Below, piece by piece: positions 41,735 through 63,820 of a stretch of 64,000 nucleotides of DNA (the stretch's first letter is position 1; each line of letters begins with the position of its first letter). Under the pieces are notes generated by a model. The model was not told the DNA's origin. It did not search any database and saw only the letters and a list, made by a program, of their open reading frames with translations. This DNA is from an uncultured Aquificales bacterium. Lineage in GTDB: Bacteria > Thermosulfidibacterota > Thermosulfidibacteria > Thermosulfidibacterales > Thermosulfidibacteraceae. Position numbers and translations under genes: made by a program. The stretch spans positions 28,468 to 92,467 of the forward strand of contig CAYVOC010000001.1 in the NCBI GenBank assembly GCA_964453345.1, written 5' to 3'.

Positions 41735-42683
41735 GTTTGAGAAGGATATATACGAGATTGAGAAAAAGATAGAGGAGTTAAGGTCCATAGGAACCGGCGC
41801 CCAGCTTGATATAGAGAGGGAGATCCGGACCTTAGAGCGCAAGGTCAAAAGAAAGCTGATAAAGCTATACAGGGAGCTTACCCCCTGGCAGAGGGTTCAG
41901 GTTGCAAGGCATCCCAATCGTCCTTACACCCTCGATTATGTGAACCACATGCTTGAGGATTTTGTGGAGTTTGCAGGGGATAGAAGGTTCGGTGATGATA
42001 AGGCTATAGTTGCGGGCATAGGCAGGTTTGAGGGGATGACCGTTGCTGTAATAGGCCATCAAAAGGGCAGAAATACCAAGGAGAACATAGAGAGGAACTT
42101 CGGAATGGCTCACCCTGAGGGCTACAGGAAGGCCCTGAGGGTGGCCAAGCTTGCCGAAAAGTTTGGTTTTCCAATTCTCACCTTTGTGGACACCCCCGGC
42201 GCATATCCCGGCATAGGCGCCGAGGAAAGGGGACAGGCCGAGGCCATAGGGGAGAATCTTTACGAGTTTGTGGCTCTTCGGGTTCCCATTGTGGTCTCCA
42301 TCATAGGAGAGGGGGGATCCGGTGGCGCCCTTGCCATAGGCGTGGGTGACAGAATCCTCATGCAGGAAAACGCTGTATATGCGGTTATATCCCCTGAGGG
42401 ATGCGCATCTATTTTGTGGAGGGATGCTTCAAAGGCTCCCTTGGCTGCGGAGGCCCTGAAGCTGACGGCTAAGGATCTTTACGAGCTTGGGGTTATAGAC
42501 GAGATCGTTAAGGAGCCCATAGGTGGGGCGCACAGGGATCACAGACTTGCCGCCAGCATATTGAAGAGGGCCATCAGAAGAAACCTGAAGGAGCTTGTGA
42601 AGATCCCTCCCGACGAGCTCGTGGAGAGAAGGTATGAGAAATTCAGAAGAATAGGGGTGTTTAAGGAAGAACCACAATCCTGA
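41718..42683 (+). CDS. accA: acetyl-CoA carboxyltransferase alpha subunit
   Basis: [30 protein letters not shown]. Confidence 0.96.
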
Positions 42684-43440
42684 AACCGACGGAGTCGTAG
42701 TTTCTCTCAGGTGACAGCCCCCTTCTTGCAGAGCACCTCAGGACCTTTTTCTTGCTCTCCCAGCCTCCCCCCTTCACAACCCTTCTCTCCTTTGGGGTGG
42801 GGAGGTTGGGAAGGCCATACCAGGAGTCGGTCCACTCCCATGCGTTGCCTATGAGATCGCAGATCCCGATGCTGTTGGGCTTAAAACTGCAGACGGGGCC
42901 GGTTTCCCTGTAGCCGTCCCTTTCGGATCTGCCGCTAAATCCCGACCAGAAGTTTGCGTTATCGTCTATGGCCTCATCGCTCTTTCCAAGCTTGCAGGCG
43001 TATTCCCACTCCTCTTCCGTGGGTAGCCTCACCTTTCTTTTGATCTTTTTGCTCAGCCACTCGGCAAAGGCGTGTGCGTCATACCAGTTGACGCAGACAA
43101 CGGGATGGTCTTTCCCCTGCTTGAACATGGGTTTTGCGGTGTCCTCGCATCCCCATAAATCCTTCTTCTTGGGGGTGTATCCCGTCTCCTTTACGAATTT
43201 CTCCCACTGAGAAATAGTGATTTCGGTTTTGGAGATCCAGAATCCCCTTTTGATGCAGACCTTCCTTTCGGGCTTTTCGTCAAAGTAGCAGTTTTTGTTT
43301 TTCGCTTTGCATCCCATCTGAAAGCATCCGGGCGGGATGTATATGAAGGTTATTCCGGTAACTTTCTCTGTCCATGTGTTGGGGTGTGCCCATAACATCT
43401 GTGCAGAAAACAGCAGTAAAAGGATCAGAAGGTATCTCAT
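42661..43440 (-). CDS. secreted FGE/SUMF1-fold protein (NirV-like, lacks FGE catalytic cysteines)
   Basis: signal peptide, [29 protein letters not shown]. Confidence 0.85.
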
Positions 43441-43471
43441 AGGGATTAACCCTCCGGATTTTTGATGTTGG

Positions 43472-43499
43472 AAAAGGGGAGGGGAAGCGCCCCCTCCCC
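43472..43499 (-). terminator. intrinsic terminator after the octaheme cytochrome gene
   Basis: GGGGAGGGG/CCCCTCCCC 9-bp stem followed by TTTT on the minus strand. Confidence 0.7.
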
Positions 43500-43509
43500 G
43501 GTTTTGCTC

Positions 43510-44871
43510 TTAGTAGGGAGCGGAGGACATAACAGGCGAGAGCTCCTCTATCTTGTTGTGCTTTATCCTCCAGTTGTAGATGGCCTGCATGTCCTTGTAA
43601 ACCTGGAACATCTGGAAGAATCCATGCCAGTGGGCGTAGTCCGGTGCATCCATTGCGGCACCCTGTCTGGCCCTTCTGCCGGTGTGGTGCCAGAAGTAGT
43701 AGTAGAGTTCCTGGAAGGCGTCGCTCCAGGGATCCTTCTTGAGCAGGCCCTTGGACTTGAGGTCCTTCAGCATGGCCACCACCTTGTCGTAGTAGAAGTT
43801 GTAGAGCTTCACAGCATCGTCAAACTTCTTGAAGAAGTTCTTTGTATGGGTGGTGGAGTGGCAGTTTTCGCAAACCTTCATCATCAGCTCTCTGCCCTTG
43901 GGACCGAATCCGCGCTCAGGTCCGGCGAAGGGCTTCTTCAGATACTCCTCTGTGCCTCTGACCATGCTCTTTTTGTGCATGAGGTCCCAGTAGAGCCTTT
44001 CGCCAACATTGTGGGTGGTCTTGAGATCCCCTATGCCGCTCATGTGGCACACGGCGCAGGTGGGTGCTTCATAGTCTCCAGGCTCCCATGTGTCGGGGGC
44101 GCTGTCCCACTTCCACTTCTCGCCGTGGGCGAGATACAACTGGCCGTGGGCGCTCTCCAGGTAGATCTCTATATCGGGGTGATCGGGTCCAAGGTGGCAC
44201 CTGCCGCAGGTGTCGGGCTTTCTGGCCTGCTCAATGGAGAATTTGTGCCTGTAGTGGCAGGCAACACAGTTGCCTATGCCGCCGTCGGGATACCTGGTTC
44301 CGATACCACCGGGCCATCCGGCAACGGGCTTCTTGTCCGGTCCGAGCTTGACCACAGCTCCATGACACATCTGACAGCCGGTTCTTCTTGTGGCTGTGGT
44401 TCTGGGATCCCCCTTGGGCAGACCGGCGAACTGCCCGCCCTCGTAGTATTCCTGCAGTTTTCTGAACTTTGCAACTTCCACCACGGGACGGGATGCGAGC
44501 CTTGCGTGGGCGCTCTTGGTGAACTGCTCAACCTCTGTGGGGTGGCACTTGGCGCAGGTCTTGGGGGACACCATGGGGGAGATGTAGATGTTGGTTCCCC
44601 TTATCCCGTCGCACTGGCTCGCCATGGGGGAACTTTTGGGAACCACGTGACAGTCGTAGCAGGAGACGCCCGCATGCGCCATGCGGCTCTCCTTCCACTG
44701 GAGCACTATTCCGGGGGTCTTTTTGGTGTGGCACTCGATACACTGAAGGGCTTCCTTGGAGAATCCGCGCTTGACCACCAGGTTGGTGTTCTTAACCAGA
44801 TTCGGGTAGTATTGGGCCCATAGCCCCGACCAGGCAAGGATGGTAATTAACAGGACAAGACACCTCATCAT
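43510..44871 (-). CDS. octaheme cytochrome c, hydroxylamine oxidoreductase family (epsilon-HAO-like)
   Basis: signal peptide; 8 CXXCH motifs (CIECH, CYDCH, CAKCH, CQMCH, CVACH, CGRCH, CAVCH, CENCH); [20 protein letters not shown]. Confidence 0.88.
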
Positions 44872-45431
44872 GGCGCTACACCTCCTTTATCTTTTTTGGC
44901 TTCTTCAAGAAGCGCTGCCAACACATCTCCATGTCCCACCGTGTGATGGCAGGAAACGCAGGTCTTTTTGGTTTCCCCTATGAGATACGCCTTGTGTGCG
45001 GTTATGGCTTTGATGGGGATTCCGTTGCCTATCAGCTCCTTGTGGCATTCCTTGCACCCGGACTCGTAGGCCTTGTGAACATAGGGCTTTTTGTGCTTCC
45101 AGTGTTCAACCCAATGCTCTGCGGAGGCCTTGGCACCGGTCAGGTGAACATACATGTCGTTGACGCCGTAGAATATCTTTGCCGCTAAGTATTTTATGAT
45201 TCCCTCGTGGGGCAGGTGGCAGTCGCTGCACTTGGCCCTCACAACCCCCCTGTGGTTCAGCCCGTGGGCCGCTTTGACCCAGGTCTGGTAAAAGACCTTC
45301 ATCTCGTGGCAGGATGCGCAAAAAGAGACCTTGTTTGAATGAATCAACTGGCTTGCCGAGATAAGCCCTACAATGGCTGCTACAAAGACGCCTACAATAA
45401 AGCCCAGAATCGCTTTCTTCAATCCCCTCAC
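44868..45431 (-). CDS. NapC/NirT (cM552/NrfH-like) membrane tetraheme cytochrome c
   Basis: N-terminal TM; CASCHEM, CSDCH, CKECH, CVSCH..VGH; TTG at 45422 is a plausible alternative start. Confidence 0.9.
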
Positions 45432-45506: not shown

Positions 45507-45539
45507 CGTTAAATTTCTGTTAAAGTCTGTTACTAACAG
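45507..45539 (-). promoter_or_regulatory. TTAACA-type direct-repeat operator upstream of the tetraheme/octaheme operon
   Basis: minus strand GTAACA-N4-TTAACA-N5-TTAACG; contains the 17-mer also found at 48548-48564; candidate TTGAAA-N17-TATCTT promoter just downstream. Confidence 0.65.
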
Positions 45540-45577
45540 TTGTCCCGTGAGGGTTTGCCTCCTATAGTGATAGTGAA

Positions 45578-46174
45578 ATGGGAGATATGGTGGGGGTGAT
45601 CTGTATCCTTACGGGTGGAGAGAGTCGGAGAATGGGGAGGGACAAGGCCGGGCTTTCCTTTCGTGGCAGGACCTTTTTAGAGCATATGGTTTGCAAGGCG
45701 CGGGAGCTTTCCTTCAGGGTCGTTCTCTCGGTGAAGAGAAAAAGAGAAGAGTTTTCCCGATACGAGCAGATAGAGGATGTCAAGGGGCGTGGCCCCATCG
45801 CCGGGATATACTCCGTCCTCCAGCGCTTTGATAGGGTGCTGTTTGTGCCTGTGGATATGCCCATGCTGGATACGTCGGTTTTGAAGATGCTGTGGGAGGC
45901 GTCGCAGGGGTATGATGTAACGGTGTGTGAGGTTGAAGGCAGGCTCCAGCCTCTGGTGGGGGTCTATACAAGGGGCGTTTTGCCTCTGCTGGAGGAGGCG
46001 ATAGAGTCGGGAGACTACAGCATCAGGCGGGTTGTTTTGAAGTGTGATAGGGCGAGGATCCTCAAAGCCGAGGATTTCGGGTGGGACCCTGCGTGGTTTT
46101 TGAATGTGAATACCCCTGAGGATGTGGAGGTGCTGAATGTCCTTCAGGATGGTGGATGTTTCCGGCAAGTTTGA
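45578..46174 (+). CDS. mobA: molybdenum cofactor guanylyltransferase
   Basis: [31 protein letters not shown]. Confidence 0.9.
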
Positions 46175-47054
46175 GACGAAAAGGTTTGCGAGGGCCTCTG
46201 GAAGGATAAGGCTTCCCAAGGAGGTGGTGGATCTCATCAGGGAGGGTAGGGTGAAGAAGGGAGATGTTCTGAGGGCCTCCGAGATTGCGGGAATGATGGG
46301 GGCAAAGAGAACCTTTGAGCTTCTGCCCTTCTGCCATCCCATCCCCTTTGATGCGGTTGAGGTGAGGGCGGAGCTCGAGGAGGACGGTGTGAGGGTGGAG
46401 GCCACCGTCAGCGGAGTGTGGAGGACCGGATACGAGATGGAGGCTGTTACGGCGGTGGTTGTTGCACTCACCAACGTTTACGATATGTGCAAGGCCTACA
46501 CGGGGGAGATGGTTATAGAGGATGTGAGGGTTGTTGAAAAGGGTGGGGGCAAAAGCGATTGGTATGACGATCTGAGCGGGTTGAGGGTGGCGATTATAGT
46601 GGTGAGCGATTCCGTTTACGAGGGGAAAAGGGAAGATAGAAGCGGCAAGGCCTTGAGGGAAATGTGCGAAGAGCTGGGGGCGAAGGTTGTTTGGGAGAGG
46701 GTGGTGCCGGACGAGGTGGACGCCATAAAAGGCGCCATAGAGGAGGCGTCGGGTGTGGCGGATCTCATACTCACCACGGGGGGGACCGGAGCTTCCTTCA
46801 GGGATGTGACCCCGGAGGCGAGTCAGGACCTTCTTGTCAAGGAGATGCCCGGATTGGCGGAGGCTATGAGGATACTCGGCGTGAGGTTCACCCCCAGAAC
46901 CCTTCTTTCAAGGGCGAAGGCGGGCATTGTGAAGGAGGGATGTGTCTTGATAAATCTTCCCGGGAGTGTGAGGGGCGCTACCGAGAGCCTGTCCATGGTG
47001 GCCCCCCTGATCAAGCATCTCATAGAGATGTCAAGGGGTGGAGGGCACGAATGA
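46137..47054 (+). CDS. moaC: bifunctional MoaC / MogA-MoaB protein
   Basis: MVDVSGK, LLPFCHP, TGYEMEA, YDMCK, then VSD..REDRSG, TTGGTG..RDVTPEA, NLPGS. Confidence 0.9.
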
Positions 47055-47362
47055 AGTATGGCCCCAACGTCGGAATGATACTCATTCATAAAGGTATAGT
47101 GAGGGGATTCTCCAGGGATGGCTCTCCTGTAAAGGGCATGGTGGTTGAGTATGACCCCTCTGAAGTAGAGGCGATTGTTGAGGAAATGCTGAACAGAGAG
47201 GGCATAGAGCACATAGATGTTAAGATAAATTCCGGCAGGTTATCTGTGGGCGATGAGATAATGACGGTGACGGTTGCAGGAAGATACAGGAGGGATGTTC
47301 TGCCCGTTATGGATGAGCTTTTGAGCAGAATAAAAGCGGTAGTGAAGGAGAGAGAGTTTTAG
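47051..47362 (+). CDS. moaE: molybdopterin synthase large subunit MoaE (short form)
   Basis: [31 protein letters not shown]-coupled start at 47051. Confidence 0.75.
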
Positions 47363-48282
47363 CCTCCTATTTCAACCATCTGGCTTTTGCTTTCCCATCT
47401 GGGCTTGTGTATGCGCCCTTTAATCGCGAAAAGCTCTGTCAGTATCTCCTTTAGCCTCTTTTCCGGTTCCTTTCCCCTCAGTATTTTTCTGATGTCAACT
47501 TCGTGCCTGCTGTGCAGACATGCCTTGAGCCTGCCGGAGGCAGTCACTCTTAACCTATCGCATCCCCTGCAGAAGGGGCTGGAGACCGGTGTTATAAATC
47601 CCACCTTTCCCTTAAGTTCCGGCACGTAAAAGACCTTCGCCACCCCCTCTGTCCCTGCGGCCCTCAAGCTGTATCTTTTTTCTATAATCTCCATGAGCTC
47701 TGTGTAGGGCATGAACAGATCATGAAACCTCTCTCTGGTGTGAGGGAAGGGCATAAGTTCGATGAACCTCACCTGTATCCCCTTCGGAAGGAAGGTTTCC
47801 ATAAATTTTGTTGCCTCATCATGGTTCAGGCCTTTCATTATAACGGTGTTAATTTTGACTTCCAGCCCCTGTCGCCTGGCCTCTTCTATTCCTGACAGCA
47901 CTGAATCCAGCAGATCCCTTCCGGTTATGGCCCTGTATTTTTCCGGGGAGAGGGTGTCAATACCCACGTTTACCCTTTTTATCCCCGCTTCTTTTAGATC
48001 CGCGGCGAACCTAAACAGAAAAGAACCATTTGTTGAAAGGTATATTGGTATGTTCAAGGAGGCTATTTTTTCTATAAGTGAACATATGTTTCTTCTGAGA
48101 AGCGGTTCTCCGCCGGTTATTCTTACCTTTCTCAGACCAAAGTTTTTGAGGATTTCTACTAAGGTTGTTAGCTCCTCAAAGCTTAAAAGTGAACTTTTAG
48201 GAAGCTTTTTGTAGTTGTCAGGGAAACAGTATATGCATCTGAGATTGCAGCGGTCCGTTACGGAAATTCTGAGATACATCAC
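47359..48282 (-). CDS. moaA: GTP 3',8-cyclase
   Basis: YLRISVTDRCNLRCIYC, TGGEPL, FCRGCDRLR..G.LKAC, C-terminal GG. Confidence 0.93.
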   Translation of the reverse strand: MMYLRISVTDRCNLRCIYCFPDNYKKLPKSSLLSFEELTTLVEILKNFGLRKVRITGGEPLLRRNICSLIEKIASLNIPIYLSTNGSFLFRFAADLKEAGIKRVNVGIDTLSPEKYRAITGRDLLDSVLSGIEEARRQGLEVKINTVIMKGLNHDEATKFMETFLPKGIQVRFIELMPFPHTRERFHDLFMPYTELMEIIEKRYSLRAAGTEGVAKVFYVPELKGKVGFITPVSSPFCRGCDRLRVTASGRLKACLHSRHEVDIRKILRGKEPEKRLKEILTELFAIKGRIHKPRWESKSQMVEIGG

Positions 48283-48443
48283 TCTTTGCTTATGGGTTCT
48301 TCTATCTCCCTTGCGGCCTTTCTGAACTCCTTTAGGGCCTGTCCCGCACCTCTTGCGAATTCAGGAAGTTTTTTGGCGCCAAAAAGGAGCATTACCACAA
48401 AGCATATGAGAAGCAGTTCAGAAAATCCTATCCCTCCTATCAT
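48279..48443 (-). CDS. tatA: twin-arginine translocase TatA (54 aa, absent from the ORF track)
   Basis: MIGGIGFSELLLICFVVMLLFGAKKLPEFARGAGQALKEFRKAAREIEEPISKE; GGAGG RBS; its stop overlaps the moaA GTG. Confidence 0.9.
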   Translation of the reverse strand: MIGGIGFSELLLICFVVMLLFGAKKLPEFARGAGQALKEFRKAAREIEEPISKE

Positions 48444-48517
48444 GTCTTCCTCCCGCAACTGTTGACTTTACACTTTAATTTACATATCCATGCCTGACAA
48501 TTCCACACTTCAAGTCG

Positions 48518-48566
48518 TGTTAATTTTTTTAACATCAGTTAACACTTCTTTAACAGAAATTTAAAC
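48518..48566 (+). promoter_or_regulatory. TTAACA direct-repeat operator upstream of the porin-nap operon
   Basis: TTAACA at 48529, 48539, 48550 and TTAAAC at 48561 (10/11/11-bp period); inverted TGTTAA at 48518. Confidence 0.7.
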
Positions 48567-48639
48567 GATTCCTCTATTGAGCTTTTGAGATAGTGAATGA
48601 AATAATATGCTCAAAGGAAAAATGTGCAGGAGGGAGAGG

Positions 48640-50142
48640 ATGAGGGGGAGAAGTTGGGCTTTGATCTTTTCTCTGATCCTTTCTGTAATTTTTCTGGGGT
48701 GGACCCTTGGTGCGGCGAAGGTCTATAATGTGAAAGAGGTAAAACTCAGGTTGGATTTCAGTGAGCAGGTGAGGATGGAATACTGGAACACCTTTGATAA
48801 CGGAAAGCCCGGGCTTGACGACAGCTACAGCTTCTACTCCAGCAAGGCGAGGCTGGGAGCGGGTGTGAGCTGGAAGTATTTTGATGCCTATGTTCAGCTG
48901 CACTACACCCAGTTCTTCGATCTACCCGATGACGGCATGTTCGGAACGGGTGTCCTCTATCATAAGTTCAACAACCTTGAGGCCTATCAGGCGGGCAGGC
49001 GTAAAGAAGCAGCCGACAGCCCCGGTTATGCGGCGATTTCCCAGGCCTGGATAGCGGCTAAGGTGCCCTGGGTGAAGGGGCTGAAGGTTAAGCTTGGCAG
49101 GTTTGCCTACAATTCCGGTCTGGAGGCCGGGGCGAAGAATCCAACCATAAAGATCCTTAAAAAGACCAGAATCTCCCAGAGGCTGATCGGAACCTTTGAG
49201 TGGTCCAGGGTGGGCCGTTCCTTTGATGGCTTCCAGGTGGTTTACGACAGGCCCTACTGGAACCTTTCCCTCACCGCCGTCTATCCCACCGCCGGTGGCT
49301 TCTATCTCAAGAGGGACGAGAACGAGGTGAACGGCTATAAGATGAGGGATATAAGCATTGTGGCGGCGGCCCTTTCTCTGAAGGATTCCTTTATAGACGG
49401 GCTGGATGCCCAGGCCTTCTACTACTACTACAACGACGACAGGGGCCTGTATAAGGCCGGGAAGGGCGCCGATCCTGAGATTCACACCGTTGGCGGGCAT
49501 GTGATCTTTACCAGACCCTTGGGACCGGGCGCCTTTGACCTTCTCTTCTGGGGTGCCTACCAGTGGGGAACCTGGGGCGCCAACGGGAGGATTCTTGACC
49601 ATGACGCCTACGCCTTTGCCGTTGAGGGCGGATACAAGTTTACCTCCCTCGCCTTTAAGCCCTGGATCAGGGCTGGATATTTCTATGGTTCCGGTGACGA
49701 TGATCCCAACGATGGGGACCATGAGACCTTCTTCATGATGATCCCCACCCTCAGAATCTATGCGAGGACCCCCTTCTATAATCTTATGAACACCGAGTAT
49801 GTGTTCGGTCAGCTGATCTTCAAGCCCCTGAAGAATGTGGTGGTGAGGACCGACGTCACCAAGCTGTGGTTAACAGAGGATAAGGACGGGTGGTATCTGG
49901 GTTCCGGTGTTTGCAGGCCCGATGTGTTCGGTTATTCCAGCAAGCCGTCCGGCGGGGATGATGATCTTGCCACCATGTGGGATATTTCCGCCACCATAAA
50001 GAACATCTTCAACTATGCGGGATTCAAGGTGAATCTGGTTCTCTACTACTCCCATGTGTGGGGCGGCGATGTGATAGAGAACAACTTCAAGAAGGATGAG
50101 GACATGGATTTCTTCTACACAGAGCTTCAAATAAAATTTTAA
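48640..50142 (+). CDS. outer-membrane beta-barrel porin (alginate-export-family-like)
   Basis: signal peptide, alternating aromatic beta-strands, RSFDG, Y.YGSGDDDP.DG..ETF, C-terminal Phe; ATG 48640 has a GGAGG RBS. Confidence 0.8.
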   Translation: MRGRSWALIFSLILSVIFLGWTLGAAKVYNVKEVKLRLDFSEQVRMEYWNTFDNGKPGLDDSYSFYSSKARLGAGVSWKYFDAYVQLHYTQFFDLPDDGMFGTGVLYHKFNNLEAYQAGRRKEAADSPGYAAISQAWIAAKVPWVKGLKVKLGRFAYNSGLEAGAKNPTIKILKKTRISQRLIGTFEWSRVGRSFDGFQVVYDRPYWNLSLTAVYPTAGGFYLKRDENEVNGYKMRDISIVAAALSLKDSFIDGLDAQAFYYYYNDDRGLYKAGKGADPEIHTVGGHVIFTRPLGPGAFDLLFWGAYQWGTWGANGRILDHDAYAFAVEGGYKFTSLAFKPWIRAGYFYGSGDDDPNDGDHETFFMMIPTLRIYARTPFYNLMNTEYVFGQLIFKPLKNVVVRTDVTKLWLTEDKDGWYLGSGVCRPDVFGYSSKPSGGDDDLATMWDISATIKNIFNYAGFKVNLVLYYSHVWGGDVIENNFKKDEDMDFFYTELQIKF

Positions 50143-50154
50143 AGGAGGGTGGCT

Positions 50155-50538
50155 GTGAAGAGGTGGTTTTTGTTGGTGGCGTTTTTGGCGCTGGCCGCCT
50201 GTGTTAACACAGGGAATGCACAGCGGCCCGCTGCCAAGACAGAGCCGAAAAAAGCAGAGGTTGCGGGACACCCTCAGCTGACGGACCAGGAGAAGCTCAT
50301 CGCCTGCTCCCAGTGTCATAGGGATGTGACCCCTGATGTGTATAACGAGTGGTATAACTCCGTTCACGGTATCGCCAATGTCAAGTGCTTCCAGTGCCAT
50401 GGAACCTTTGAGGACTTCCATGTGGTTCCCCAGCTCAAAAAGTGCGAGGCCTGCCATGCAAGGGAGGTGTCCCACGCGCCTAAAGGGAGGGATTGCTGGA
50501 GCTGTCATCCTTCCCACAGGTTTACCGTTCACAAGTAA
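50155..50538 (+). CDS. small tetraheme cytochrome c lipoprotein (NapM-like)
   Basis: lipobox LAAC; CSQCH, CFQCH, CEACH, CWSCH. Confidence 0.85.
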   Translation: MKRWFLLVAFLALAACVNTGNAQRPAAKTEPKKAEVAGHPQLTDQEKLIACSQCHRDVTPDVYNEWYNSVHGIANVKCFQCHGTFEDFHVVPQLKKCEACHAREVSHAPKGRDCWSCHPSHRFTVHK

Positions 50539-50556
50539 ATGAGGGGAGGTGGAAGG

Positions 50557-53304: not shown

Positions 53305-53887
53305 CAGAAGGAATTTCTTGGCCCTTCTTTCCACATCCTTTGTATCCTTGCTTGCCTTGGGTGATAAGTCGGCTGAGGCTTCCCTCTTCAAATCCCCTGT
53401 CGCCACCAACAGGTTGAGGCCCCCCGGGGCTGTTCCCGAGGAGATTTTTGCCGGAAAGTGCATCAGGTGCGGCCGTTGTGCCGAGGTGTGTCCCTATCGG
53501 TGCATACGTGTGCTGGATATAAGATGGGGTGTCTGGGCGGGAACCCCTCTCATCTTTGTGGATGAGAACCCCTGCTATCTGTGTATGAAGTGTGTGGAGG
53601 TCTGTCCCACGGGAACCTTAGTCAAGATAAAGCAGAGTGAGACCAGGATGGGGCTGGCGGTTATAAACAAGCGTTACTGTGTTACCTGGAGGGAGATGGC
53701 TCTGTGCCGCAGCTGTTACAACGCCTGCCCCTTCAAGGATGTGGCCATAAGGCTGGAGGAACTCAAGCCCGTGGTTGTGGAGGACAAGTGCACGGGCTGT
53801 GGGCTGTGCGTTCACGCCTGCCCCATGAATCCGAAGGCGATAAACGTTGAACCCATATACTCCTTCGCCAGGGTCAAGTGGAAATGA
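53258..53887 (+). CDS. napG: NapG/MauM ferredoxin-type protein
   Basis: Tat SRRNFL, LRPPGA, CIRCGRC..CP, C..C..C..CP repeats; TTG start at 53258 inferred from a GAGGT RBS. Confidence 0.88.
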   Translation: MSGEKSNRKSREEKISRRNFLALLSTSFVSLLALGDKSAEASLFKSPVATNRLRPPGAVPEEIFAGKCIRCGRCAEVCPYRCIRVLDIRWGVWAGTPLIFVDENPCYLCMKCVEVCPTGTLVKIKQSETRMGLAVINKRYCVTWREMALCRSCYNACPFKDVAIRLEELKPVVVEDKCTGCGLCVHACPMNPKAINVEPIYSFARVKWK

Positions 53888-54669: not shown

Positions 54670-55293
54670 ATGAAGGTTGTGTGTATATGCGGGCCCCACA
54701 ACAGCGGAAAAACAACCCTGATGAAAAGATTGATAGAGGAGCTTTCGCAAAAGGGGCTTTGGGTAAGTGCGGCCAAATCCACCAAGCATAGGGATCTGTT
54801 TCTGGAAACCGGAAGGGATAGCTCCATCCTTGTGGATGCGGGAAGCCGTGAGGTGGGGGTTTTTGAACCGAAAAGAACAGTTTTCTTTTTGGAGGGAGCC
54901 GTTTCGCCGGAGCTGATCCCCTTTATGTTTACCTGTGATGTGCTGCTGCTGGAGGGCTTTCGGCACAGCCCGTTTCCAAAGATAGCCATCTACAAGGGTG
55001 ATGATGAAGACTACTGGCGGGACGTCGATAATGTGGTGGCGGCTATTGCGCCGCCTTCTGTTTCCGTTCCCTGGCAGGTTCCCCGCTTTCTCTTTGAGGA
55101 TGTGGAAAGGATAGCGGACTTTATTCGGCAAGAAGCACCGGACTTTGAAGGGGTGCTGCTTGAGGTCAACGGCAGAGTTGTGGGAATGAAGCCCTTTGTG
55201 CAGAGACTGCTCAGGGATGCGGTTATGGGAATTGTAAAGAACCTGAAGAATACGGAAAACGCCCGGCAGGTGAAAATAAGGATTGTGTTGTAG
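54670..55293 (+). CDS. mobB: molybdopterin-guanine dinucleotide biosynthesis protein B
   Basis: GPHNSGKTTL, DS..L..AG, LLEGF. Confidence 0.85.
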   Translation: MKVVCICGPHNSGKTTLMKRLIEELSQKGLWVSAAKSTKHRDLFLETGRDSSILVDAGSREVGVFEPKRTVFFLEGAVSPELIPFMFTCDVLLLEGFRHSPFPKIAIYKGDDEDYWRDVDNVVAAIAPPSVSVPWQVPRFLFEDVERIADFIRQEAPDFEGVLLEVNGRVVGMKPFVQRLLRDAVMGIVKNLKNTENARQVKIRIVL

Positions 55294-55297: not shown

Positions 55298-55336
55298 GGG
55301 GGAGGGTGGGGGAGATCCCCCCGATCCCCCTTTTAT
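55298..55336 (+). terminator. intrinsic terminator of the nap operon
   Basis: G-rich/C-rich stem followed by TTTTATT between convergent genes. Confidence 0.65.
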
Positions 55337-56919
55337 TCAAGCAGTATCCTTTCGGCTTCCTCTCTGTAGGCGTCCATCACGTAGGGGATGCCGGAGACTC
55401 TGGCTGCCTCCTCTGTGAGCGCCATGAGATCGTTGCGGGATATGGTTGAGAGCTTGAAGTTTCTGCTTCCCGCCATGAGCTGCTGGAGTCCCACCTTGAA
55501 CTTCTGGCAGAAGGTATACATGGCTATGGCTCCGAGGGGCATCTTGTCCACTTCGCTGCCGTATTTGGCCTTCAGCTCCTCGTAGCAGATGAAGATCTCC
55601 TCCACCGTGTTTCCGTATTTGGCGACGGTCTTGGGAAGCTTGCCTTCCTTGAGCCACTTGCCGATGTTCTTGCCCACCATTCCGGGAATCATGAGCGCCC
55701 TTCCCATGCAGACCGCCTTCACATAGGGAGCGCCCATGGCTATGGCCTTGAAGACGCCGTCCTCTGTGGAGAAGCCTCCGCCGATGGCTATATCGGGAAC
55801 CCTGAAGCCCTTCTCCTCAAGCTTCTTGCAGAACTGGTAGGCCAGCGCCTCGAGGTAGAAGGTGGGGATACCCCACTCGTTCATCATGGGCCAGGGGCTC
55901 ATTCCGGTTCCGCCGGGTGCGCCGTCTATGGTGATAAGATCAAGTCCCGCCTCGGCTCCGAATCTCAAAGCCATTGCCAGATCCACGGCGGAGTAGGCTC
56001 CCGTCTTCAGGGTGATCCTCTTGAAGCCCAGCTTTCTCAGCCTTTCTATCTCCTTGAAGAAGGACTCCCTGGTGACAAACCCGAGCCTTGAGTGCCTCTC
56101 AAACTCCTTGATCTCCCCTTCCTCAAAGGCCTTTCTCACCGCGGGGTTTTCGGGATCGGGAAGGACAACGTATCCCCTTCTCTTCAGTTCAATTGCCCTC
56201 TCAATGTCCCTTACCTTTATCTCTCCACCTATGCTCTTGGCGCCCTGTCCCCACTTGAGCTCGATGGTTTCAAGGTGGTGCTTCTCTATAAGGTATTCGG
56301 CAACGCCGAGCCTTGTGTCCTCAACGTTCATCTGGACAAGTATCTCGCCGTAGCCCTCGTGATACCTTTTGTAGGACTCTATCCTGCGGTCCATCTCGGG
56401 GGATTTTTTGACCTTACCGTTTGAGTCAAGCTCAAGCTCCGGATCCACGCCGCACACGTTCTCACCGCACACCAGGGTGATTCCGGAGATGGCTGCGCCC
56501 ACCGCGAAGTGCTCCCAGTTCTTGCGGGCTATGTCGGTGGATCCCAGTGCGCCTGTGAAGATGGGAAGGCGCATCTTCACCTTCTTCTCCCATCCGTATT
56601 CCGTTGTGGTGTCCACGTTGGAGAAGATGGCCTCATCGGGTCCCGCGTTTTCTCCAAGGCCCTTTGCGCCCCTGGCATAGCCCTGGATGCTCAGGTGGGA
56701 ATAGTCCACAGGATAATCCTTGTCCGCACCGGCCGTTATCTCCCCGTAGGGCTGGGGATACAGCACTTCCCTGCCCCTAAAGGAGGCAAGCCAGATCTCA
56801 CATCCGCCTGTGCAGCCGTCTATGCATCTGGTGCACAGTCCGGACATGGGAACAACGTTTCTTGAGCGGTTAAAGGTCTGGGTTGCGTCGTTCGCATTGG
56901 GCCTTCTCAGGTTTCCCAT
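55333..56919 (-). CDS. stand-alone FMN-binding glutamate synthase family protein
   Basis: N-terminal CTRCIDGCTGGC, ELKWGQGAKSIGGE, IDGAPGGTG, MGR; AGGAGGT RBS. Confidence 0.88.
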   Translation of the reverse strand: MGNLRRPNANDATQTFNRSRNVVPMSGLCTRCIDGCTGGCEIWLASFRGREVLYPQPYGEITAGADKDYPVDYSHLSIQGYARGAKGLGENAGPDEAIFSNVDTTTEYGWEKKVKMRLPIFTGALGSTDIARKNWEHFAVGAAISGITLVCGENVCGVDPELELDSNGKVKKSPEMDRRIESYKRYHEGYGEILVQMNVEDTRLGVAEYLIEKHHLETIELKWGQGAKSIGGEIKVRDIERAIELKRRGYVVLPDPENPAVRKAFEEGEIKEFERHSRLGFVTRESFFKEIERLRKLGFKRITLKTGAYSAVDLAMALRFGAEAGLDLITIDGAPGGTGMSPWPMMNEWGIPTFYLEALAYQFCKKLEEKGFRVPDIAIGGGFSTEDGVFKAIAMGAPYVKAVCMGRALMIPGMVGKNIGKWLKEGKLPKTVAKYGNTVEEIFICYEELKAKYGSEVDKMPLGAIAMYTFCQKFKVGLQQLMAGSRNFKLSTISRNDLMALTEEAARVSGIPYVMDAYREEAERILLE

Positions 56920-56974
56920 TCTCTACCTCCTTTTGAGAATTGTGGCGAGAAATTGCCAATAGCTTATACAAAAT

Positions 56975-58180
56975 TTAGCTGGGGTTTGCAACCCTTAGCG
57001 CCTCTAAAATTTCCCCCTTGCGGGCGATTTCCCTTTCGGCCTCTACTATGACGAAACCCTGGCAGATTGCGCTTGTTAGATAATTTGACGTCAGCTGGCT
57101 TCCGGCGGAGTAGGCTATGATTCTTCCGTTTTCGTGTTTGAAGTTTGCCCTTATGAAGTAGACCTTCCCCTTGCGGGATTTGAAGTCTTCCCCTGCTATC
57201 ACCTTGAAGTAGGTGTTGTCGGGCTTTGAATATCCCTGCATCTTCCTGAGGGCGGGCACCAGAAACTCCAGGGCGTTTACCAGCATGGCCGATGGGTATC
57301 CTGGCAGGCCAAAGAAGAGTTTCCCATTTTTGGTCCCAAAACAAAGGGGTCTTCCCGGTTTTATGTTGGTGTATTCAAACTTCACATCCACTTCTATCAT
57401 GGAGAGGGCTTTTTTGATGTAATCCGCCTTTCCCACCGAAACCCCTCCTGTGGTGACCACCGCATCGTAGCGCTCAAGGCACATGTTCAGGGTTTCGGCT
57501 ATCCCTTCGGGGTTATCCTCCACTATGCCCATGTATGAAACCTGGGCGTATCTTTTCAGCATCGATTTCAGAATGATGCTGTTGACGTTTCTTATCGCGC
57601 CTTTGTCGGTGCAGAAGGGTTCCCTGATTTCGCTGCCTGTGGCAACTATTGCCACCCTTGGTCTGGAAAATACCCTTACCTGGTATATTCCGAGCCTTGC
57701 AAGAAGCCCCACTTTTCTGTAGTCGAGCTCCTCTCCTCTGGGAAGCACCCTTTCCCCGCAGCGGATTTCCGATGCAGGTGGGTTGATGTAATCGCCTGTT
57801 CGGGGAGGGGTTCTGGGCTTTAGGATGTCTCCCTCAACCTCTGCGTCCTCCACCCTTACCACGGCGTTTGCCCCCTGGGGCAGAAAGGCCCCCGTTGCCA
57901 CATAGCATGCCTCGTTCTCTTTAAGGGTGAAGCTGGGTGTGTCTCCCGCAAGTATCCTGCCGATGATGCGAAACTCCTTCTGTGGCGCCTCAGGATTCAC
58001 TTTTACGGCGTATCCGTCCATGGCCGATGTGGCACAGGAAGGTATATCTTCTTGAGAGATGATATCCTCTGCGAGCACCCTACCTGTGGCCTCCTCGATT
58101 GTGACCACTTCTGTCCCGAGCTCCCTTGCGTGCTCAAGTATGATCCTTTTTGCCTCTTCCCTTTTCACCCTTTTGCCCAT
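56975..58180 (-). CDS. moeA: molybdopterin molybdotransferase
   Basis: GRVLAED, SAMDGYAV, TGSE, TGGVSVG..D, IKPGRP, LPGYP. Confidence 0.93.
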   Translation of the reverse strand: MGKRVKREEAKRIILEHARELGTEVVTIEEATGRVLAEDIISQEDIPSCATSAMDGYAVKVNPEAPQKEFRIIGRILAGDTPSFTLKENEACYVATGAFLPQGANAVVRVEDAEVEGDILKPRTPPRTGDYINPPASEIRCGERVLPRGEELDYRKVGLLARLGIYQVRVFSRPRVAIVATGSEIREPFCTDKGAIRNVNSIILKSMLKRYAQVSYMGIVEDNPEGIAETLNMCLERYDAVVTTGGVSVGKADYIKKALSMIEVDVKFEYTNIKPGRPLCFGTKNGKLFFGLPGYPSAMLVNALEFLVPALRKMQGYSKPDNTYFKVIAGEDFKSRKGKVYFIRANFKHENGRIIAYSAGSQLTSNYLTSAICQGFVIVEAEREIARKGEILEALRVANPS

Positions 58181-58181
58181 C

Positions 58182-59201
58182 CTATCCCCTCCCGAAGGGG
58201 CATACCGGAAAGACGCAGACGTTGCATCTGTGGCACAGCCCCCCGTGGAACTTTCTCGCCACCATCTCTCTGGTTATTTCTCTTCCCGTAAGTATATAGG
58301 GCAGCCAGACGTCTAAGGAGGTGGCCCTGAAAAAGAGGGCGGCCGCCGGGACCGCTATGACGGGGACTTCGTCTACCCATCCCATTGTCAGCATGTTCCC
58401 CGGTTGCATGGGGTTGCCCCTTATGAAGTTTCGGGCACCCGCCTCCCGTATCGCCCTGTAGGTGACATCGTCCGGATCCACGGATGTGCCCCCGGTGAGA
58501 AGGACCAGATCGTATCTCTGGCAGAACTCCTTTATCTTCTCTTTGATGTCCGGGAGGCTATCCGGCAGTATCACCTTCTCCTCAATCTTCACCAGAAGCT
58601 CCTCGAGCTTGGGGCGGAGTCTGTCGTAAAACTTATCCTTTATCCTTCCGGTGTAGATTTCGGTTCCGGTTATTATAAGCCCCGCCCTTTTGGGGGTGAG
58701 GGGATCCACGGATATGGCATCCTTACCGATTTCAGCGGCCCTTTCAATCTCATCCCTTTTGGCGACAAGTGAGATGATCCTTACCGCTGCCACCACATCC
58801 CCCTCTCTGACCACCATCCCGTCGTGGATGGTGGCGCAGGACGGCTCCCCGATGAGGTTGAACTCTGTTAGCGCTTCGACATTTATCCGTGTGACCCCAT
58901 AGACGGAGGAGTATATCTTTATCTTTCCCTCGGATGGCTCCTCGTCCCTGTATGTGTTTTGCCCCATGAGGGCGTCCGCCAGGATCACGGCGGCGTCATC
59001 CTCGTGGATTTCGTCCTCCTTCAGCTCAAGTATGTAGATGAACTCCTTGCCCAGCCTTTTCAGCTTGGGGATGTCCTCTTCTCTTATGATGTGTCCCTTT
59101 TTGAAGGCCGCTCCCTTCACGCCCCTTTCGGGATCCACCTCGGTTATGTCATGGCAGAGGACCATCCCCACCGCATCCTCAACCTTCACCAACTTTGCCA
59201 T
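58182..59201 (-). CDS. molybdopterin-binding (MoeA/CinA-like) protein with C-terminal Cys cluster
   Basis: [40 protein letters not shown]. Confidence 0.8.
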
Positions 59202-59204
59202 TGC

Positions 59205-60254
59205 TCACGCCTCCTCGGGTATTAGATGAAACAACCTTGTGGAAAAGAGAAAGTCGGTTCTTTTGCCAGGTTCTAACACGAGATTGGGGGCCAAGGATAG
59301 GGGGAGACTGAAGGTGAGCGCATCCCCTTCTCCCATCTCAACCAGTATGTTTACGCTGTCTCCCACCCTTTCTACCCTCAGGATTTTCACTTCTATTCTA
59401 ATGGTGTGCCTTTCCTTCTTCAAAGCTAAGGCCGCAGATGGAATGAGGAGATAGGCTCTTCCCCTTATGCTGTATCTTTTGGGTATGGTTATTCTGTGGG
59501 CAGGCGGGATCGTGATTTCCGTCCGGTTCTCTCCTGCTTCCGTCACGAGCACGCGGACGAAGTTCTTGTGTCCCAAAAGCTCTGCGATCTTTTTGGAGGC
59601 CGGAAAGAAGAAGATCTTTTCGGCCCTTCCCCATTGAGCCACGTTGCCCTTTAGATATATGGCGCAGTTGCCGCCCAAGGACAGCATCTCCTTTACATCG
59701 TGGGTCACCATGATGAGGGGTATCCCGTGGGCTATGCACAGCTCCTTTATCATGGAAAGAAGCCTCGCCCTCAGGGTTGCGTGTATGGAGGAGAGGGGTT
59801 CGTCTAAAAGAAGCAGCCTGGGGCGTATGGCGAGCGCCCTCACAAGCGCCGCCCTCTGGCTCTCACCGCCGGACAGGTTTTTCGGGTATTTTTCAAGAAG
59901 CTCTCCTATCTCCGCCCTGTCAACAAGGTATTTTACCCAGTCTTTGTCGATCCCTTTGCCAAAGGTGATGTTTTCAAAGACTGTGAGATGGGGAAAGAGG
60001 GCGTGGTTCTGGGGAAGGTATCCCACCCTTCTCTCGTTGACCGGCAGAGAGATCTTTCTGCTGGAGTCGTAAAATACCTTTTCGCCTATCTTTATGTATC
60101 CCTCATCCGGCTTTATGAGACCCGCTATTGCCTTCAGGGTGAGGCTCTTGCCGGAACCGGAGGGACCAAAGATGACGTTTATAAGGCTATTGCTTTTCCA
60201 GTGGACGTCTAAGGTGAATCTGCCGAGCCCCTTTTTGAGCCTTACTTCAACCAT
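59205..60254 (-). CDS. modC: molybdate ABC transporter ATP-binding protein
   Basis: [25 protein letters not shown]. Confidence 0.88.
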
Positions 60255-60922
60255 TTTTCGGTGACCCTGTTGATGAGGATAAGAAGGCTTACCGATACTG
60301 CCGCCGCAATTGCTGCAAGAAGATTTGCCCTGTGAAACTGCCCCTCGGATACGGCGTTGTATATCTCTATGGGTAAGGTGGTGGTCTTGAAGGGAATGTT
60401 TCCTGCAAGCATCAGGGTTATGCCGAATTCCCCGAAGGATCTGGCGAAGGCCAGTCCTGTTCCTGCAAGTATCCCGGGCTTTGCCATGGGCAGGACGACC
60501 CTGAAAAAGGTGTATAGCCTTCCCCTTCCCAAGGTGTAGGAGACAAATATGTATTCGGAGTCAACCCCTTCAAAGGCGGCCTTTACCGTTTTGAAAAACA
60601 ACGGGAAGGATGCCACAAAGGCCGCCAGAACCGCCGCATGCCACGTGAAAAGAATTGTGCTTCCGAAAAGCTCATGGATCAACTTCCCCAAGGGGCCGCG
60701 TCTTCCAATGACCAGAAGCAGCAGGTATCCTGTGACGGTGGGGGCAAAGACCACGGGCAGCATAAAGAGGGTTTCAAGAAGTCCCTTCATCCTGAATCTG
60801 CTTCTGGCAAAGATGTAGGCGAGGGGAGTGCCTATGAGAACAACAAGCATGGTGGATATGAGGGAGACTTTTAAAGAGAGCTTTATGGCAAACAGCGCCT
60901 CCCTATCTGCAAACAACCTCAA
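60242..60922 (-). CDS. modB: molybdate ABC transporter permease
   Basis: LP...[20 protein letters not shown]. Confidence 0.92.
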
Positions 60923-61637
60923 ATCCCCACTTCTTGAAAATCTCCTTTTTACTGCACATAAATTCCAAAAATGTCTTCCCCTTTTCGGTTACAGCGGCAG
61001 CTTTGAAGATAACAGGGCTGTGGGAAGCTTCGGGAAGGATCTTTAGCAGCTTGAGTTTTTCTTTAAACATCAGGTAGTCGGAGTAATAGACAACCGCCGC
61101 ATCCACCTCCCCAAGGATGGTCCAGGTTGCGGCCTGGGCCACGGTGTTTGCAAGAACGATTCTGTCCTGCAGGCAGTTCCATATCCCGAGGTTTTTGAAG
61201 GATTCCGCCGCATATTTTCCGCAGGGGGCGAATCTGTAGTTTCCTATTGCAACCCTTTTAAGCTTGCACAGATCCCTCCAGTTCTTGAGGGAAATTTCCT
61301 TTTTCGATACCAAAACGAGAGATGTCTTTGCCAAGCTGATGTCCCCTGATAGGATTCCCTTTGCCTTGAGATAGTCCATCCACCTGCGGGACGCCGATAT
61401 AAAGAGATCGCAGGGTGCCCCCATCTCTATCTGCCTTGCCAGCTTCCCGGAGGAGGAGACGATGACACGGACTTTGACCCTTTTTGCCCCCTCAAAGTCC
61501 CTGCCCAGGGCCTTTACGGGCATTCTTATTCCGGCGGCGCTACAGACAAAGAGCTCCTCTGCATGGCACACGCTTACAAGGGCAAAAAGCAGTATGATGA
61601 GGAGATTACCCTTCACCTTCGGAGTCGGGAGGCTCAA
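60903..61637 (-). CDS. modA: molybdate ABC transporter substrate-binding protein
   Basis: signal peptide, [26 protein letters not shown]. Confidence 0.9.
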
Positions 61638-62304
61638 ACTTGTAGCCCACCCCCGGATAGGTTACTATTATTCTTGGGTTTTCCGGATCAGGCTCTATCT
61701 TCTCCCTCAACCTCTTTATGTGCACATCAATTGCCCTGCTCCAGGGGTATATCTCCTTGTTGGGCCACAGCTGGCTCTTGATGAAGTCCCTGCTGAGAAC
61801 GGTTCCTGCGTTGGAGGCGAGCAGCTCTAACAGCTCAAACTCCCTTTTGGTCAGTTTCACAGGCTTTCCCTTCACCAGCACCCTTCTCTGGGAGGTGTAG
61901 ATCTTTATGTATCCGAAGTCGTAGTCCTTGGGCCTGTATCTCTGACTTCTGGACAGATGCACCCTTATTCTGGCGGCAAGCTCCAGAAATTCAAAGGGCT
62001 TGGTCACATAGTCGTCTGCACCGCACTCAAAGCCCCTCAATTTGTCCGAGACGCTGTCCCTGACCGTCAGCATGATTATGGGAACGGAACTTTTCTGGCG
62101 GATGGTCTTGCACACCTTTAGTCCATCTGTGTCTGGCAGGTTAAGATCCAGAATGATCAGGTCGGGGTCGAAGGAGTCCATTTTCTCAAGCCCCTCCGTT
62201 CCCGATAGGGCCGTCTCCACGCTGTAGCCGTCCAGCTCCAATTGATCCTTCAGGATCCTCGCTATGTCCACATCGTCTTCAATTATGAGGATGCGCGCCT
62301 TCAT
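61606..62304 (-). CDS. OmpR/PhoB-family response regulator
   Basis: [40 protein letters not shown]. Confidence 0.95.
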
Positions 62305-63820
62305 CGCTTCCCTTGGGGATTGTTATGTTGAACACGGTTCCCACATGATTTTCGGGGTCCGACACCCATATCTTCCCTCCGTGGGCCTCCACTATCCCCT
62401 TGGCTATGAAAAGCCCCAGTCCCATGCCCCCGTTGTTGCCCCTGTAAAACTTCTGAAAGATTTTCTCCTTTTCTTTTTCCGGTATGCCGGGGCCGTAGTC
62501 CTCAACCGTTATGTGGACAAAGCCCTTCTTCTCTTTGAGGGCTACCCTGATTCGGGATTTTGGAGGGGAGAATCTTATGGCGTTTGTAAGGATGTTGGCT
62601 ATGGCCCTTGAAAGCTTTGCCCTGTCGAAGGATACGGTGCATCTGCCGTTGCAGCTGTAATCGAAATCTATCTCTACCTCCTTCTCCATGGCTAAGGGTG
62701 ATACGGCAAACAGGGTGTCCTCTATCAGGGCCACTATGTCTCCCTTCTCCCTGTTCAGTTCTAACTGACCGTGCTCCAGCCTTGTGGAATCCAGTATATC
62801 ATCCACCATTCTGTGGAGCTTTTCAACGTTCTTCATTATTATGAAGCCGTAGGGGTGGTTCTCCTTTCTTATCAGGAGATCGGCCGCACCTTTGATGGCG
62901 GTGATGGGGGTTTTTAGATCGTGGGTGATGTTGGAGAAGAATTCGGTTTTGAATCTCTCCGTTCGCTTCAGCTCTTCGTAGGCCTTCTTTAACTCTGCGG
63001 TTGCCTTCTGAACCTTCTCCTCCAGTTCCCTCTGGTGCTCCGCTATCTTCTCTATCATGCTGTTGAACCTGTCCGCTAGAAGCTTCCATTCGTCCCGGCT
63101 GTTTATGTTGACTCTGGCGTCAAGGTTGCCCCTTTCCACCTCCTCGGATGCCGTTATAAACTTCTTTAATGGGCTGAGAACCGTTGTGTTCAGCAGAAGG
63201 TATATGACGGTAAATATGAGAGTGAGGGCGCCGATGGAGACGAGGTAGGTGTAGATTCTTCCTGCCGCAAGCTCCCTGTAAACGGATGTGGCGGGAAAGG
63301 ATATGCTTATGCACCCCTTTGTGTGCTGGGTGTATTCCATGTGGCAGTGGCGGCACTCGCTTTTGAATTTCAGGGGAGCCGCATACTTAAAAATCTTTTC
63401 ATTCCGCTGGGATACAAGCTCCCAGTAGGCCCTCTCTTTTTCGTCCCAGATCTTTTTTATGGCTCTTGCCTCAAATTCATCGGGTATGTGTGCGGGATTC
63501 TGGCTGTTCAGAACCGCTATCTTGATCCTGTAGGGGAAGATGTTTTTTGCAAACTCGGTCAATTCGGCCACAAAATGGGAGGGGGTGATGAGCCTGTATC
63601 CATCTTCTGTTTTCACATAGATGCCCCCTCTGGATGCTATCCAGTGCCTGCTCAAAATCACCGTGTTGTATATGCCCTCCGCCTGGTGCCTCAGGTAGTT
63701 GAGCATGGTGGATTCCTGCCGCTTGTTTATCCAGTAGAGGAAGGAGAGCCACAGTATAAGCGTGGTGGAAAATAGAGCAAAGATAATCTTCGCCCTTATC
63801 CTTGTGAATTTCTGGAACAT
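62279..63820 (-). CDS. membrane sensor histidine kinase with periplasmic c-type heme (DUF3365/Tll0287-like) domain and HAMP
   Basis: TM, periplasmic NP...PDEFE and CRHCH, TM, HAMP, THDLKTP, NAIRFS, DYGPGI, GLGL. Confidence 0.9.

Follow-up and report, generated by a model that had tools for sequence, protein, structure and literature searches.

Here, we describe a gene block for nitrate ammonification in an uncultured Aquificales bacterium (assembly GCA_964453345.1, contig CAYVOC010000001.1) which most probably encodes a respiratory path from nitrate to ammonium that is located in the periplasm and depends on menaquinol, with nitrite being reduced directly by HaoCA, a pair of multihaem cytochromes of which HaoA belongs to the hydroxylamine oxidoreductase (HAO) family. 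The analyzed stretch of DNA, called the window in the following, comprises 64,000 nucleotides, and the block extends from position 42661 to 63820. From its gene content, its motifs, a gene pairing conserved in relatives and the absence of NrfA, we infer this path with a probability of about 60%. In the proposed scheme, NapH and NapG would draw electrons from menaquinol, and the tetrahaem lipoprotein NapM would hand them to a monomeric NapA, exported by the twin-arginine translocation (Tat) system, for the reduction of nitrate to nitrite. NapD would serve as chaperone, and the adjacent genes for molybdenum cofactor (Moco) synthesis, molybdate uptake and TatA would furnish cofactor and export. 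The membrane tetrahaem HaoC would feed the octahaem HaoA, which would convert nitrite to ammonium in a six-electron step, so that the pair would work like NrfHA. Both divergent promoters of the block would probably be switched via GTTAM repeats by a kinase with a haem-c Cache domain and an OmpR-type regulator, the signal being nitric oxide (NO) or a related compound. The scheme predicts an uncultured, deep-branching hydrothermal-vent lineage that respires nitrate to ammonium without NrfA, and surveys of ammonifiers based on nrfA would overlook such organisms.

The gene haoA (43510-44871, minus strand) encodes an octahaem cytochrome c of 453 amino acids (aa) which matches the HAO family PF13447 with 93.5 bits (cut-off 21.9). 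Its eight CXXCH motifs are invariant in an alignment of 32 HAO-family members (A1), which was widened with 150 relatives from a representative search; in total, 1292 homologues were found at E<=1e-10. The nearest solved structure is IhOCC of Ignicoccus hospitalis (4qo5), with 9e-48 by sequence and 2.6e-90 with the A1 profile, and the next relatives are canonical HAO, hydrazine dehydrogenase (HDH) and anammox reductive HAO (1.8e-52 for 1fgj, 3.3e-51 for 6h5l, 3.3e-38 for 4n4j and 1.5e-35 for 6hif, all with the profile). CXXCK is absent from HaoA, and the NrfA family PF02335 reaches only 16 bits on it, below its cut-off. The preceding gene haoC (44868-45431, minus strand) encodes a membrane tetrahaem cytochrome of the NapC/NrfH type with 187 aa, four CXXCH motifs and an N-terminal hydrophobic helix (PF03264, 103 bits; NrfH model TIGR03153, 70 bits and under the cut-off). 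Its sole solved match is NrfH (2j7a_C), with which it has the motif CXXCHxM in common. The stop codon of haoC overlaps the start of haoA by 4 bases (ATGA), with GGAGG just upstream, and haoC is the only full gene of the NapC/NirT family in the genome.

The pairing of the two genes is widely conserved. A scan of species genomes gave 50 loci, against each of which the window proteins were compared. Of these, 42 contain a match to nearly the whole of hao, and in 39 of the 42 an NrfH-type gene is located directly upstream of hao on the same strand; the order napM-napA-napD-napG-napH was found in the fetched flank of six of the 42 (L005, L009, L016, L020, L035 and L042). These six loci with nap and haoCA span at least two phyla, and five of them carry the same type of kinase and regulator. 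The clustering of nap and haoCA is not due to chance, and according to the comparison of the fetched loci the conserved core consists of nap, the two-component genes and haoCA. Sequences labelled Campylobacterota were found neither among the HaoA homologues and the species-genome loci nor in the protein atlas or the clusters of ten representatives; atlas and clusters contained only Thermodesulfobacteriota, Anaerolineae and unnamed metagenome entries.

The initial annotation had assigned the block to the reverse hydroxylamine-ubiquinone redox module (reverse-HURM) proposed for vent Campylobacterota. In this route, HaoCA would reduce nitrite with four electrons to free hydroxylamine, which would enter the cell and be converted to ammonium by the hybrid cluster protein Hcp. 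The components named there are indeed all encoded, namely Nap, HaoA, a cytochrome of the NapC/cM552 type and Hcp. For Nautilia profundicola, the same set of proteins is described as nitrate-induced, with an HaoA in which the critical tyrosine is absent; the published scheme also includes free hydroxylamine, import of the AmtB type and an Fe-S donor to Hcp of the NAMH_1302 type (PMC3701875). The route was proposed again for Deferribacter autotrophicus, for which a nap-hao-hcp cluster is described (PMC6896113). What is not specifically supported here is the hand-over of hydroxylamine to Hcp. The hcp gene (11392-13014, plus strand; PF03063 (Prismane), 2.4e-163) is located outside the block and ends 29.6 kb before its start, in agreement with the roughly 30 kb noted initially; its neighbors are unrelated according to the Pfam scan of the window, and no partner gene adjoins it. 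Only three of the 50 fetched loci (L024, L032 and L050) have hcp in their flank. In addition, an interpretation of Hcp as an NO reductase has become frequent and is given in a source that lists epsilon-Hao among the dissimilatory nitrite reductases (PMC10949509), and epsilon-HAOs without the tyrosine are reported to reduce both nitrite and hydroxylamine in vitro and barely to oxidize hydroxylamine (PMC8042395). The reverse-HURM route is therefore regarded as unlikely for this organism, and direct reduction of nitrite by HaoCA is better supported than a hydroxylamine shuttle. In an abstract by Haase from 2017, haoC reportedly precedes haoA and ammonium is said to be the product formed from nitrite.

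The absence of NrfA holds for the genome as a whole. The assembly comprises 1.51 Mb in 64 contigs, with a guanine-plus-cytosine (GC) content of 52.2% and an estimated completeness of 99.92%. Genome-wide, no match to PF02335 exceeded the cut-off of 24.1, the best one reaching 21.5 bits over about 60 residues, and family searches gave no match to NirS, NirK, NapB (PF03892) or COX1/NorB. A scan of all open reading frames (ORFs) of at least 60 aa with at least two CXXCH motifs yielded nine multihaem proteins, among which CXXCK occurs solely in a tetrahaem protein of 111 aa. The lack of nrfA, nirK/nirS and napB that the initial annotation had noted for the window extends across the near-complete genome.

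The nitrate reductase of the block belongs to the monomeric class of Desulfovibrio desulfuricans. The best solved match of NapA (808 aa; 50539-52965, plus strand; Pfam molybdopterin domains) is the enzyme of this species (2nap/2jim, 5e-249), whereas structures of the NapAB type such as E. coli NapA match with 8e-160 or weaker, and its Tat signal contains the twin-arginine motif SRREFLK. Directly in front of napA lies a napM-like gene (50149-50538, plus strand) for a tetrahaem lipoprotein of 129 aa with four CXXCH motifs and a lipobox-like motif LALAAC. This protein gives only weak Pfam matches to cytochrome c3/c7, and a homologue precedes napA in all six nap-bearing loci. The genes napD, napG and napH follow (53017-54666, plus strand; PF03927, 3.1e-22; NF007012, 3.8e-39; TIGR02163, 2e-37). 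The listed start of napG at 53201 overlaps napD and the NapG match begins only at residue 28; to judge from this, the true start is probably located further downstream. The nearest enzyme class, the missing NapB, the tetrahaem gene before napA, the Tat signal and NapD are all in accordance with a monomeric NapA/NapM system, and the initially proposed Nap without NapB is supported.

At its right end, the block contains a histidine kinase gene (62279-63820, minus strand) and the gene of an OmpR/PhoB-type response regulator (61606-62304, minus strand; PF00072 and PF00486). In addition to HAMP, HisKA and HATPase_c, a haem-c Cache (Tll0287/DUF3365) domain was recognized in the periplasmic part of the kinase; PF11845 scores 49 bits against a cut-off of 24.1, and the domain contains a single CRHCH flanked by two hydrophobic segments. 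An alignment of 10 kinases encoded at hao loci, distant ones included, shows the CXXCH motif in all 10, and with a profile of the sensor domain, 11 of the 50 loci were found to encode a protein of this type. In six further genomes of the host lineage, kinase homologues are located at most about 2.5 kb from a hao-type gene (G011, G016, G017, G005, G007 and G009), and regulator homologues with 61-63% identity lie beside nap or hao in L005, L006, L009, L016 and L020. The recurrence of a haem-c Cache kinase beside haoCA across phyla is a new, if modest, point. A 2026 preprint reports haem c binding for the Tll0287/DUF3365 domain family and NO-sensor-like behavior for one of its signalling members; the words "nitrate" and "nitrite" do not occur in its main text.

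Two intergenic regions in the block separate divergently oriented genes, one being located between haoC and mobA and the other between tatA and the string of genes formed by an outer-membrane barrel (porin) gene and napM. They share a 17-base word as well as arrays of GTTAM direct repeats with a period of 10-11 bases (45508-45533 and 48519-48554). Across the 64 kb of the window, the pattern GTTAM-N5-6-GTTAM matches four times as opposed to 0.2 expected matches, each time in one of these two promoter regions. Among 14 matches in 528 kb of related loci, nine lie at relevant promoters and five elsewhere; the nine are found within 300 bases upstream of an NrfH-type gene (L006, L007, L020, L028 and L031) or a short way upstream of the string of porin and nap genes (L016 and L020). 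In the nearest relative, L005, there is no strict match. As sequence patterns, the arrays are a candidate operator of the OmpR-type regulator, which is to be taken as a lead and not as a finding. A regulation of its own, as suggested in the initial annotation, is plausible and is predicted from the haem-Cache kinase, the OmpR-type regulator and the repeat array in both divergent promoter regions. It is a tentative further step, with the odds against it, that kinase and partner form a dedicated regulator of HaoCA-type enzymes and, where it occurs, of napMADGH, which would probably respond to NO, act through the GTTAM repeats and be conserved as far as the Thermodesulfobacteriota. If true, this would be the first proposed signal path and operator for the non-NrfA branch of nitrate ammonification, and kinase and shared array make the induction of Hao-based ammonification accessible to tests.

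The distribution of the genes in the host lineage was studied in 18 species genomes, which make up the host phylum in the genome collection, belong to one order and are draft-like, with 20 to 330 contigs per assembly; among public records, metagenome bins labelled Aquificota or Aquificales come nearest. Orthologues of hao with at least 74% identity, one of them a fragment, are present in nine of the 18 genomes, none of which contains a full NrfA. Conversely, a full-length NrfA (506.7 bits) occurs only in G013, in which hao was not matched, and napA was found in four genomes, all from the family of the window. The contrast between G013 and its kin fits a replacement of one enzyme by the other, albeit as a single case, and the lineage offers a natural comparison of one genome having NrfA without hao with nine having hao without NrfA.

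NapA resembles its counterparts in another phylum more closely than housekeeping proteins do. Toward four genomes labelled Thermodesulfobacteriota, NapA shows 75-83% identity, in comparison to 40-59% for AccA and 45-50% for the Clp ATPase, whereas the values toward a genome of the same lineage are 93%, 87% and 89%, respectively. AccA was added as a housekeeping yardstick because paralogues blur the comparison of the Clp ATPase. In a quick maximum-likelihood tree of HaoA with 41 rows, rooted on two distant paralogues, the five rows of the lineage are nested in a supported group of 11 rows, which also includes thermophilic Thermodesulfobacteriota and one Thermodesulfovibrio row. These sequence comparisons support the view that the module moves between vent thermophiles, and the difference between NapA and AccA across phyla agrees with the lateral transfer proposed previously (PMC5276818, PMC5441870).

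Several observations weigh against the reading of HaoCA as the respiratory, ammonium-forming nitrite reductase. One concerns Tyr467 of Nitrosomonas europaea HAO, the tyrosine forming the cross-link to the neighboring subunit's catalytic haem. In the profile alignment, its column in 1fgj corresponds to His414 of HaoA, a position with H in 115 of 121 homologues, but this stretch aligns weakly and two residues earlier HaoA carries Y412, where 117 of the 121 have Y, two have W and two have F. Since this conserved tyrosine is so close to the cross-link column, absence of the P460 cross-link is not proven; IhOCC has Trp and Thr at the columns of Y412 and His414, and from the alignment we lean towards an HaoA without the cross-link. 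A tyrosine-less anammox HAO (HAOr) is reported to yield NO instead of ammonium (PMC8042395). Furthermore, NapA reaches 692 bits with model NF010055, for which the cut-off is 904, and the models for NapG, NapH and NrfH also remain below their cut-offs. The repeat statistics given above overstate the significance because the pattern itself was derived from these sequences. No RNA sequencing run is on record for the organism, and the eight good matching public runs are all DNA, four being labelled hydrothermal vent metagenome and four carrying no organism label. Five of the nine hao-bearing genomes of the lineage show no napA (three of the five are less than 90% complete), so that Hao may also use nitrite from outside or detoxify nitrite, NO or hydroxylamine. 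Finally, the genome encodes two further octahaem proteins of family PF13447 and a small sirohaem protein. The possibility raised by the initial annotation that another nitrite reductase is encoded elsewhere found no support in the family searches for nrfA, nirS and nirK, and is upheld insofar as these three proteins are alternative candidates.

The two paralogues, together with the hao genes lacking napA and the NO formation by HAOr, could mean that HaoCA is mainly detoxifying or NO-forming, or that another member of the family is the respiratory nitrite reductase. The HAO family is widespread in lineages of sulfate reducers, and a sensor of the type encoded next to haoCA behaved as an NO sensor in the preprint cited above. 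The paralogue on C14 (532 aa) resembles IhOCC (1.9e-43); the one on C30 (409 aa) is nearest to the anammox reductive HAO 6h5l (3.8e-24), and its gene (L056:5817-7046) is separated by about 1 kb from a gene for a formate/nitrite transporter with an N-terminal rubrerythrin-like part (L056:8147-9424). However, a quinol dehydrogenase gene adjoins neither the C14 nor the C30 paralogue, the nap linkage is confined to the hao copy of the window, and NorB is missing from the genome to handle NO, which makes such a role of HaoCA or of a paralogue improbable.

Even less probable is that imported nitrite is reduced in the cytoplasm by the small sirohaem protein and the adjacent ferredoxin, HaoCA being otherwise employed. 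On C52, a NIR_SIR protein of 264 aa (70 bits; L060:736-1530) with a PCP_red-type N-terminus and inserted ferredoxin motifs adjoins a 4Fe-4S protein of 216 aa (L060:86-736). The pair resembles the Fe-S protein Theam_0999 and the neighboring "NirA" (Theam_1000) of Thermovibrio ammonificans, of which NirA was detected in the proteome and is regarded as a putative nitrite reductase (PMC5441870). [quoted passage not shown] Yet the NIR_SIR gene is unlinked to nap, proteins of this size are commonly read as sulfite-reductase-like, and neither the conserved pairing of nap and haoCA nor the occurrence of NrfA in one and hao in other genomes of the lineage would be explained.

Among the remaining multihaem proteins, a pentahaem of 441 aa (C12:20729-22177; L057:6853-8178) was considered as a divergent NrfA on account of its length and haem number and rejected: it is nearest to the Thermochromatium tepidum cytochrome c552 (5ze8, 4.6e-14), and its match to MccSep, a polysulfide-reducing selenoprotein, is weak. 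Behind it, two proteins of 672 and 967 aa without a Pfam family are encoded (L057:8291-10309 and 10311-13214). A heptahaem cytochrome with a C-terminal membrane helix on C6 (L058:5931-7591) adjoins a gene of the cytochrome b561 type (Ni_hydr_CYTB), and the two are possibly a membrane electron-transfer pair. The genome also encodes two [NiFe] hydrogenases, which could supply electrons to the path from nitrate to ammonium via HaoCA.

All genes named in the initial annotation were recovered when the ORF listing was combined with Pfam and NCBIfam scans, and the block begins directly after accA (41703-42683, plus strand), its left neighbor. The first gene (42661-43440, minus strand) encodes a periplasmic FGE-sulfatase-domain protein of 259 aa (PF03781, 2.5e-56) with a signal-like N-terminal stretch; it starts 70 bases 3' of haoA, and a GC-rich hairpin (43476-43499) is located in the gap. 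Homologues follow hao in three loci of the same lineage (L005:11448-12167, L006:7486-8190 and L007:2141-2935) and are missing from this place in the remaining 39 hao loci. NirV, encoded beside copper nitrite reductase genes, presumably is a member of this domain family as well, which would suggest a role in maturation or as an accessory protein. An ORF of 453 aa on the plus strand (43462-44823), antisense to nearly all of haoA, matches no family and was taken as a shadow frame.

Divergently from haoC, the Moco genes mobA, a moaC/moaB fusion and moaE (ORF 47051-47362) were identified by Pfam and NCBIfam at 45578-47362 on the plus strand. They are followed on the minus strand by moaA for GTP 3',8-cyclase (47359-48282; TIGR02666, 320 bits at a cut-off of 284) and tatA (48279-48458, 59 aa; PF02416, 8.8e-19). 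A plus-strand ORF at 48286-48465 without a family was rejected as a gene, being the shadow of tatA on the opposite strand. The nap string is opened by the gene of an outer-membrane beta-barrel of the Alginate_exp family (48607-50142, plus strand, 511 aa; PF13372, 7.2e-28). Homologues with 62% and 58% identity precede napM in the Thermodesulfobacteriota loci L016 (1072-2436) and L020 (1141-2514), and the barrel could be an anion channel that lets nitrate or nitrite pass. Behind napH lie mobB (54670-55293, plus strand; TIGR00176, 81.8 bits and above the cut-off) and, on the minus strand, a gene for a protein of 528 aa with the FMN domain of glutamate synthase (GltS; 55333-56919; PF01645, 2.3e-19; no NCBIfam match), which has no homologue beside nap or hao among the 50 fetched loci. 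The genes moeA, a MoCF-domain gene, modC, modB and modA (56975-61637, minus strand; Pfam and NCBIfam) lead up to the two-component genes. From the GltS-type gene to the kinase gene (55333-63820), all genes lie on the minus strand with small overlaps or gaps; since they resemble one long operon, molybdate uptake would share the same sensor.

The contig, and with it the window, ends 180 bases past the kinase gene, and so the right border of the block is not fixed. The term "island" in the initial annotation is too strong: the GC content of the block is similar to that of the remaining window and of the genome, and the Moco, mod and GltS genes are not kept beside nap and hao outside the own lineage, the Moco and mod genes thus being a lineage-specific addition. 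Elsewhere in the window, at 5083-7230 and 23197-25068, there are ORFs of 100-210 aa without a Pfam family at 1e-5.

In comparison with known systems, a close likeness is found in epsilon-Hao/HaoCA of Nautilia profundicola, Caminibacter mediatlanticus, Campylobacter fetus and C. curvus. These have a NapC/NrfH-type gene before the octahaem gene in a nitrate-reducing genome without NrfA, and by analogy the expected role as a quinol-linked nitrite reductase would be alike. This likeness is based on gene order and the absence of NrfA in a comparison that contained no Campylobacterota sequence. The hosts differ, being Campylobacterota there and a vent lineage labelled Aquificota or Aquificales with a NapB-less Nap of the NapM type here, and in HaoA a conserved tyrosine is located two residues from the cross-link column. 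Genes for hao without the tyrosine, together with hcp, are reported as the commonest nitrogen genes of a microbial mat (PMC8940962).

The clusters of Thermosulfurimonas, Dissulfuribacter and Deferribacter are similar in napMADGH without NapB or NapC, in a nearby HAO homologue, in the lack of nrfA and in their hydrothermal habitat; hcp is located elsewhere or adjacent in clusters of this type, and elsewhere here. For Thermosulfurimonas dismutans and Dissulfuribacter thermophilus, the published account describes napMADGH without NapB, HAO homologues and no NrfA, and states that a partner of the CycB type is lacking (PMC5276818), whereas in the present block an NrfH-type gene overlaps hao. In Deferribacter autotrophicus, the neighbors are described as a small membrane protein, Hcp and a decahaem protein (PMC6896113); here, Moco, mod and two-component genes are interleaved. 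The napCMADGH systems of D. desulfuricans (2nap) and Thermovibrio ammonificans share the monomeric class of NapA, NapM in place of NapB and NapDGH, but are headed by napC, in contrast to the nap string described here, which lacks napC and begins with the outer-membrane barrel gene. The account of Thermovibrio ammonificans, with its monomeric NapA and NirA, does not mention hydroxylamine in the text available (PMC5441870).

With respect to the single enzymes, IhOCC is an octahaem of the HAO clade like HaoA and has been termed an octahaem nitrite reductase without P460 (PMC9250108). It lacks the P460 cross-link and differs by its length of 521 aa with long insertions, in comparison to the 453 aa of HaoA; the C14 paralogue (532 aa) is about as close to it as HaoA. 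NrfHA (2j7a) follows a like logic, combining a membrane tetrahaem quinol dehydrogenase with CXXCHxM and a periplasmic multihaem nitrite reductase, but HaoA is an octahaem with CXXCH at all eight motifs and no CXXCK. The nap-hao architecture lacking nrfA has been published before, namely for Nautilia, Thermosulfurimonas, Dissulfuribacter and Deferribacter, and the present block is a new carrier and not a new pathway. What it adds is modest and consists of the host lineage with its contrast between NrfA and hao, the recurring haem-c Cache kinase and the GTTAM array, the latter as a pattern recognized post hoc.

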